UHGV virus genome: UHGV-1740647
Source: a virus
DNA: 13,384 bases
Direction: 5' to 3' (one strand)
The notes beneath the pieces are model-generated. The model was not told the DNA's origin. It saw only the letters and a program-made list of their open reading frames with translations, and ran no database searches. The position numbers and the translations under genes were made by a program. Below are positions 9,144 through 9,211 of the stretch, piece after piece; the stretch's first letter is position 1, and each line of letters opens with the position of its first letter.

Positions 9144-9154
9144 ACAGACTCCAT

Positions 9155-9180
9155 AAAAAAACCCGGCACAATGACCGGGT
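9155..9180 (-). terminator. rho-independent terminator-like hairpin between the 421-aa gene and the giant gene
   Basis: On the minus strand: ACCCGG-TCATTGTG-CCGGGT followed by a run of 6-7 T, then GGAG and the ATG of the giant ORF. Stem 9161-9166 pairs with 9175-9180; the T-run corresponds to plus-strand A at 9155-9160. Confidence 0.55.
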
Positions 9181-9211
9181 ATCAGGAAATAGTATTAACG
9201 GGAATGGTGAA

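Follow-up and report, generated by a model that had tools for sequence, protein, structure and literature searches.

Predicted Rho-independent terminators lie between the genes of the late operons of P22-like phages (phage L, P22 and ST64T), in which a single promoter and the antiterminator Q/gp23 serve the whole operon. Such intra-operon terminators are common in late operons and are described as having an unknown role, the explanations offered in the phage L paper being partial termination or the stopping of transcription begun without antitermination (10.1101/2020.10.05.325894). The tR' terminator of lambda and of Stx phages belongs to the same class of signal, with the same proposed mechanism of read-through by Q; it is a regulated switch beside its promoter, and Term-seq in Sakai placed it 258 nt downstream of PR' (PMC7547250). 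A similar logic, in which a terminator blocks unscheduled transcription into costly genes and is overridden by antitermination on activation, is reported for Tn916, whose terminator prevents premature expression and is overcome by antitermination (PMC11658703). Tn916 is used here as an analogy only, being another kind of element with other hosts and its own antitermination system.

The site described in this work lies between a 421-aa gene and an 8.4-kb gene and is an ordinary feature, namely a known type of intra-operon terminator for which explanations have already been published for P22-like phages. In contrast to the P22-like cases, it is located in a 933W/Sp5-like podovirus operon, 2 nt before the ribosome-binding site of the 8.4-kb gene, and unlike tR' it lies 27 kb downstream, would be passively overridden and is not known to yield an sRNA. 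No paper mentioning a terminator at this junction was found in the literature. With a probability of about 0.6, it is a canonical Rho-independent terminator in a Q-antiterminated late operon, insulating in the lysogen and being read through by means of Q in lytic growth.

The window, i.e. the whole stretch of 13,384 nt that was analysed, covers the final part of a late operon, that of a short-tailed lambdoid prophage of 933W/Sp5-like type (Sepvirinae). Nucleotide comparison of a 1.8-kb segment including the junction gave 80–96% identity to short-tailed Stx-type phages (Sepvirinae: 933W, Sp5, phi24B and Lyz12581Vzw), 99.8% to O104:H4, and 100% to prophages of E. coli FORC_069 and others. The FORC_069 prophage (here L172), which is without stx genes, is collinear with the whole window at 30937-44320, with differences at a few positions only. 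The genes concerned and the terminator are all on the minus strand, and the two flanking genes were taken from the list of open reading frames:

10477-9212, minus strand: 421-aa gene, orthologue of Sp5 ORF79/ECs1241, tail assembly
9143-789, minus strand: giant 2784-aa gene, orthologue of Sp5 ORF80/ECs1242 (2793 aa)

The 421-aa protein was assigned to PHROG 601 (E = 3e-200), a family annotated as of no known function, and has counterparts with 83–100% identity in Stx phages. The giant protein includes the Pfam domains LPD38, LPD5, LPD1 and MuF_C and is a polyvalent virion or tail-assembly protein, encoded by the last large gene of the late operon; its start is supported by PGAP, which uses the same ATG in FORC_069. 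Both ORF79/ECs1241 and ORF80/ECs1242 of Sp5 are essential for tail formation (PMC5155283). The genes of 218, 150, 83 and 421 aa form a tightly packed block almost without internal gaps. The 83-aa ORF of this block (10488-10739, minus strand) gave a weak YMGG-like glycine-zipper match under the Pfam cut-off and is labelled 'bacteriocin' in one RefSeq phage record. Past the stop of the giant gene no strong intrinsic terminator was found downstream in the window (474-788, minus strand); a 63-aa ORF (474-665, minus strand) is followed there by a convergent DUF551 gene (49-387, plus strand).

The intergenic gap between the two genes is 68 nt long (9144-9211) and is occupied by a hairpin and a U7 run. 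Its anatomy, read directly from the sequence, is as follows:

9214-9212, minus strand: stop codon TAA of the 421-aa ORF
9211-9181, minus strand: 3' untranslated spacer of 31 nt, from the stop codon to the hairpin
9180-9161, minus strand: hairpin ACCCGGU-CAUUGU-GCCGGGU, 7 pairs and a 6-nt loop
9161-9155, minus strand: U7 run, its first U paired in the stem
9154-9153, minus strand: AU dinucleotide between the U-run and GGAG
9152-9149, minus strand: giant-gene Shine-Dalgarno sequence GGAG, separated by 2 nt from the U-run and by 5 nt from the ATG
9148-9144, minus strand: UCUGU spacer from GGAG to the ATG
9143-9141, minus strand: ATG of the 2784-aa ORF

The elements of an intrinsic terminator are therefore all present at 9180-9155: a GC-rich stem-loop (5 G-C, 1 A-U and 1 U-G pairs), a U-tract directly 3' of it, and a sense-strand position past a stop codon. 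An earlier sequence-only reading had placed a hairpin and T-run at 9155-9180, within the gap 9144-9211 and inside one apparent operon, between the stop of the 421-aa gene and the GGAG/ATG of the giant ORF. This placement is borne out on the minus strand and its coordinates are accurate; the flanking genes are co-oriented and the terminator immediately precedes the ribosome-binding site. The folding energy, which that reading had proposed as a check, also agrees, being -11.1 kcal/mol for the hairpin alone and -11.6 kcal/mol including flanks, with z of about -3 to -3.5 and none of 200 shuffles folding as well. From the position of the U-run, terminated transcripts would be expected to have their 3' ends at about 9157-9153; the equivalent U-run position in Sakai, at the ECs1241/ECs1242 junction, is about 1,296,005-1,296,012 on the plus strand of NC_002695.2. 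The signal is one-directional: a bidirectional terminator was ruled out, the plus strand having no T-run after the hairpin. Rfam 15 gave no match to a curated RNA family at 9144-9211 at E <= 1.

A loose built-in terminator scan of the whole window listed the junction site among 14 sites; the count alone is uninformative, because shuffles gave an equal number (13.9). A stricter scan, accepting a single hairpin of -8 kcal/mol or better that ends at a run of at least 5 T, returned only 4 sites over both strands of the 13.4-kb window. Three of the four are on the sense strand, one in each sizeable intergenic gap: after lom, after the 133-aa ORF and before the giant gene. The sites additional to that at the junction are listed here; in Sakai, the two sister terminators correspond to sites after ECs_1236 (lom) and ECs_1237:

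12727-12754, minus strand: sister terminator directly after lom, AACCCGCUGUGAUGGCGGGUU then UUUUGUU, -12.2 kcal/mol
11870-11896, minus strand: sister terminator after the 133-aa ORF, GACCCUGCCCCGGCAGGGUU then UUUUGUU, -13.1 kcal/mol
about 5735-5781 (near 5773), plus strand: weak terminator-like site on the strand antisense to the giant gene, its hairpin poor and with a large loop; the sole plus-strand site in the window

The placement of these sites is not random. Sixty first-order Markov simulations, in which sites at -11 kcal/mol or better were counted, gave a mean of 0.68 sites per window, equivalent to an expectation of 0.0017 (about 0.002) for the 68-nt gap; for the three sizeable gaps jointly, 0.015 sites were expected and 3 observed.

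The lom fragment in the window matches Pfam Ail_Lom, and a toxin-antitoxin module lies next to it:

12404-12693, minus strand: type I toxin-antitoxin module resembling hok/sok, with lom on one side and the 133-aa ORF on the other
about 12404-12544, minus strand: Hok/Gef ORF annotated by PGAP
12533-12693, minus strand: sub-threshold Rfam match to sok (35 bits, gathering score 59), the only notable Rfam match in the window

The hokW-sokW locus of Sp5 has already been studied (PMC8621323). In phi24B, the 20-nt '24B_1' RNA was mapped to the lom-vb_24B_43 spacer (PMC4426718) and may be derived from the hok/sok-like module. The published candidate sRNA EcOnc53 (Sakai 1292386-1292438) is on the opposite strand, starting at the last base of lom and running into the downstream spacer. 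Hfq cross-linking in Sakai ranked ECs1242 17th among genes, with reads mostly antisense (PMC4104026), which points to an antisense RNA, bound by Hfq, within the giant gene (789-9143, plus strand). The lists of Hfq-bound RNAs in the supplement of that paper contain neither ECs1241 nor a candidate sRNA within 1,293,000-1,297,000 among the entries listed; as these lists leave out peaks near sense-strand genes, a 3'UTR-derived RNA is compatible with this absence.

Conservation of the junction was assessed in 47 of 48 IMG/VR loci encoding the 421-aa protein; one further locus (L001) was from GenBank. The 47 loci yielded 10 distinct sequences with three types of hairpin:

Window: 5' arm ACCCGGU, 3' arm GCCGGGU
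933W/Sp5: 5' arm GCCCGGC, 3' arm GCCGGGU
Third group (74–79% protein identity): 5' arm GCCCGAC, 3' arm GUCGGGC

The hairpin was present in all ten variants at -11 to -14 kcal/mol (two relatives at -13.6 and -13.8 kcal/mol), each followed by a run of 7–9 U. The same junction is found in Sp5, where the hairpin is slightly more stable. Both GGAGTCTGTATGGC, which includes GGAG, and GGAGTCTGTATG were invariant across the ten. The block from the U-run through GGAGUCUGUAUG, itself invariant, is the most conserved portion of the gap; relatives differ more in the 3' UTR spacer ahead of the hairpin than in the hairpin itself, the U-run or the ribosome-binding site. All 70 cells of the stem (seven pairs in ten variants) are paired and two pairs are altered on both sides, pair 1 being A-U, G-U or G-C, pair 6 alternating between G-C and A-U, and pair 7 changing from U-G to C-G; when the 3' arm was moved by one to three columns as a sliding control, pairing fell to 29–43%. 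The junction is thus conserved with covariation, and the stem changes match what selection on a terminator hairpin would produce, as only two or three independent events among close relatives.

A homologue search with the 421-aa protein returned E. coli sequences alone among its best 120 relatives, all of at least 74% identity. Two further searches were discarded. The 14-mer GGAGTCTGTATGGC was too unspecific as a pattern for viral contigs, unrelated contigs predominating among the matches listed, and a scan of genome contigs with the alignment of 421-aa proteins gave a single contig, of 552 bp and with the label Xanthomonas, at 92% identity to the E. coli phage protein; this was taken as contamination.

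Conservation up to the start codon bears on whether the motif serves translation, the U-run being a platform for ribosomal protein S1 and the hairpin keeping the initiation region of the giant ORF open, with termination as a side effect. The U-run lies 2 nt from the Shine-Dalgarno sequence and the segment from it through GGAGUCUGUAUG is the best preserved of the gap, as such a function would have it, but the motif as a whole is that of a textbook terminator, it recurs in identical form in the operon away from start codons, and the wider fold is no more stable than shuffles (z = -0.65); an aid to translation is therefore very improbable. A larger structure hiding the ribosome-binding site, a 96-nt fold in which an upstream UCC pairs with GGA, was rejected on the same z value and is also contradicted by the third variant group, in which the upstream pairing partner is not kept. 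The out-of-frame AUG of an AUGGAG motif was likewise set aside, the third group having ACUGGAG at this point.

Moron cassettes, such as lom and bor in lambda or HK97, are reportedly insertions of a promoter, a gene and a terminator, an account that is said to go back to Juhala and co-workers in 2000 and is also cited in PMC4104026. The neighbouring lom and hok/sok units are alike in that each ends in a similar terminator, whereas the 421-aa gene is essential for tail assembly and no promoter of its own was detected. A moron-cassette terminator was accordingly ruled out, given an essential upstream gene (PMC5155283) and no promoter-like site ahead of the 218-421-aa block. More broadly, the hairpin could be without selected function, having arisen by chance or being what remains, at a mosaic joint, of the terminator of a once independent cassette. 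Phage groups do vary in the 3' UTR and in the C-terminal end of the 421-aa protein, which suggests a recombination joint nearby; such an origin is nonetheless hardly credible against a chance expectation of about 0.002, compensatory changes in the stem with a U-run in every variant, and an upstream gene that is needed for morphogenesis and hence is not a moron.

The late operon as a whole was followed in the FORC_069 prophage, where the presence and orientation of a Q antiterminator gene were established directly (PF06530, E = 2e-50; L172 7854-8288, on the same strand and 27 kb upstream). Q is followed by lysis, terminase, portal, capsid and tail-fibre genes, then by lom and the Hok/Gef gene, and then by the ORFs of 133, 218, 150, 83 and 421 aa, the giant gene and the 63-aa ORF, the last in this orientation. 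According to the PGAP table of FORC_069, all genes from Q to the giant gene are co-directional save one moron on the opposite strand, and the layout is the same in Sp5 and Lyz12581Vzw. About 10 clean sense-strand terminators were found in intergenic gaps of this operon:

Terminators 1 and 2: two strong ones, 64 and 274 nt past the Q stop, candidates for tR'
Terminators 3 and 4: after the lysozyme gene, and after Rz
Terminators 5 to 7: after the portal gene, after the major capsid gene, and after the next ORF downstream
Terminators 8 to 10: after lom, after the 133-aa ORF, and before the giant gene

Just past Q and the tR' candidates, outside the window, L172 8627-8832 (plus strand) gave a strong Rfam match (165 bits) to the sRNA family STnc100, and a gene for a SASA-family esterase is found there instead of stx.

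With some ten comparable terminators in the operon, the giant gene is not singled out. The terminator after the portal gene precedes scaffold-like and capsid genes, the latter needed in the highest copy number. This speaks against attenuation as a general role, and equally against a device directed at the giant gene on account of its cost. The proposal of the sequence-only reading that the hairpin provides dosage control dedicated to this gene is, as stated, not supported. In a more general form, a partial terminator would stop a fraction of polymerases even in lytic growth and so yield less mRNA for the giant gene than for the upstream tail genes, the giant protein presumably being a low-copy virion protein. 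Partial termination is indeed listed as a possible role of intra-operon terminators (10.1101/2020.10.05.325894), and distantly related Vibrio phages carry a terminator at the same junction and few further ones across 13 kb of upstream structural genes. Attenuation is nevertheless unlikely, as terminators of equal quality, those following the portal and major capsid genes, lie ahead of high-copy genes, as Q-modified polymerase is expected from phage lambda to pass intrinsic terminators efficiently over more than 20 kb, and as the junctions of distant relatives differ (see below).

The distribution of hairpins also touches on message stability. Here the hairpin would mark the boundary of a segment and, once termination or an endonuclease had created a 3' end, would mainly shield the message of the tail genes upstream from 3'-5' exonucleases, giving the segments of the long late transcript different half-lives. 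It does stand at the 3' end of a near-gapless gene block (218, 150, 83 and 421 aa), and similar hairpins follow the major capsid and portal genes, but the conserved run of 7–9 U would be needless for this purpose, and stabilisation as the main role is improbable to a marked degree.

Transcription of the giant gene was considered next to a promoter scan, which detected no promoter-like site near the U-run and ribosome-binding site of this gene, and none upstream of or within the block from the 218-aa to the 421-aa gene. As the U-run ends 2 nt before GGAG, no promoter fits in between, and the giant gene is transcribed by read-through only; since no virions are assembled without this gene, polymerase must pass the terminator in lytic growth. 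The Q-modified polymerase of phage lambda is largely resistant to intrinsic terminators, with efficient read-through over more than 20 kb, and by analogy the polymerase modified by Q at the late promoter would be the obvious agent. In lysogens of phi24B, lom expression does not require induction, whereas the downstream 8-kb ORF needs induction to be expressed (PMC3342100); terminators that halt unmodified polymerase between lom and the giant gene would produce such a pattern. A literature search for transcriptomes of induced Stx phages yielded none that could be used. The suggestion of the earlier reading that the giant gene depends on Q-type antitermination is thus likely, its support being indirect: the lack of room for a promoter, the Q gene 27 kb upstream, the same junction in Sp5 with an essential orthologue, and the induction-only expression of the phi24B ORF.

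From these observations we infer termination itself, read-through by Q and insulation as the selected role. RNA polymerase without Q would pause on U7 and be released once the 7-bp hairpin forms, about 2–6 nt before the Shine-Dalgarno sequence. Such unmodified polymerase could come from the lom and hok/sok units, active in the lysogen, or from spurious starts in the tail-gene block, and the outcome in the lysogen would be an 8.4-kb gene kept silent. During the lytic cycle, polymerase that has acquired Q at the late promoter, 27 kb upstream, would ignore this terminator and its roughly nine siblings and then transcribe the essential giant tail gene. The junction terminator is best read as one in a series of insulators and not as a device dedicated to the giant gene. 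It counts against insulation that lom and hok transcripts should be stopped earlier, by the terminators that follow lom and the 133-aa ORF, and that the 218- to 421-aa block, in which the scan found no promoter, would leave little for a third terminator to insulate against.

A comparable gene block occurs in Vibrio phages such as K248 and 1.205.O, in which the syntenic genes are four small ORFs, a gene for a homologue of the 421-aa protein (443-468 aa, 24–31% identity) and a giant gene of 2500–3130 aa; the giant protein has 41% identity to that of the window over the C-terminal 900 aa. A terminator, GCCCGC-CUAGU-GCGGGU then UUUUCUUUU, directly follows the stop of the 421-aa homologue; in 1.205.O the equivalent junction is at MG592575 18743-18857. 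Just one further clean intergenic terminator, downstream of the giant gene, was seen in the 22 kb examined of one Vibrio phage. The arrangement differs from that of the window, since a spacer of 87 nt containing a promoter-like site (TTCACC-17-TATGAT) comes after the terminator, and this difference weighs against attenuation. In Ralstonia Cimandefvirus the junction has a 5-bp hairpin without a U-tract, which weighs in the same direction and indicates that the terminator is not universal among phages with a homologous giant gene. The Vibrio giant gene homologue is the last structural gene and, unlike in the window, a strong bidirectional terminator lies after it; the Ralstonia homologue is 4514 aa long and is annotated 'DarB-like antirestriction'. 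The coordinates of the giant-protein homologues are L174 13034-22426 and L175 3159-16703.

The terminator at the same junction in Vibrio phages hints, from the sequence comparison, at a role tied to the giant gene. It might represent an ancient selected checkpoint for the gene pair, extending from E. coli Stx-type to Vibrio phages, by which a giant polyvalent protein, probably injected, is made at low stoichiometry or on a separate schedule; this is rather unlikely. Such a checkpoint would span two arrangements, that of the E. coli phages, which have no promoter past the terminator and so depend on read-through, and that of the Vibrio phages, in which a promoter-like site follows it.

Insulation overridden by Q, as preferred here, makes the junction one more example of insulating terminators in Q-controlled late operons, of small wider significance, and the Vibrio terminator at the same junction a minor comparative point. 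Its practical use lies in the reading of RNA-seq and Term-seq data of Stx prophages and in the design of deletions or reporters around ECs1241/ECs1242. For 933W/Sp5-type Stx phages, it means that an essential 8.4-kb tail gene can be transcribed solely through a conserved terminator, which fits its expression on induction only.
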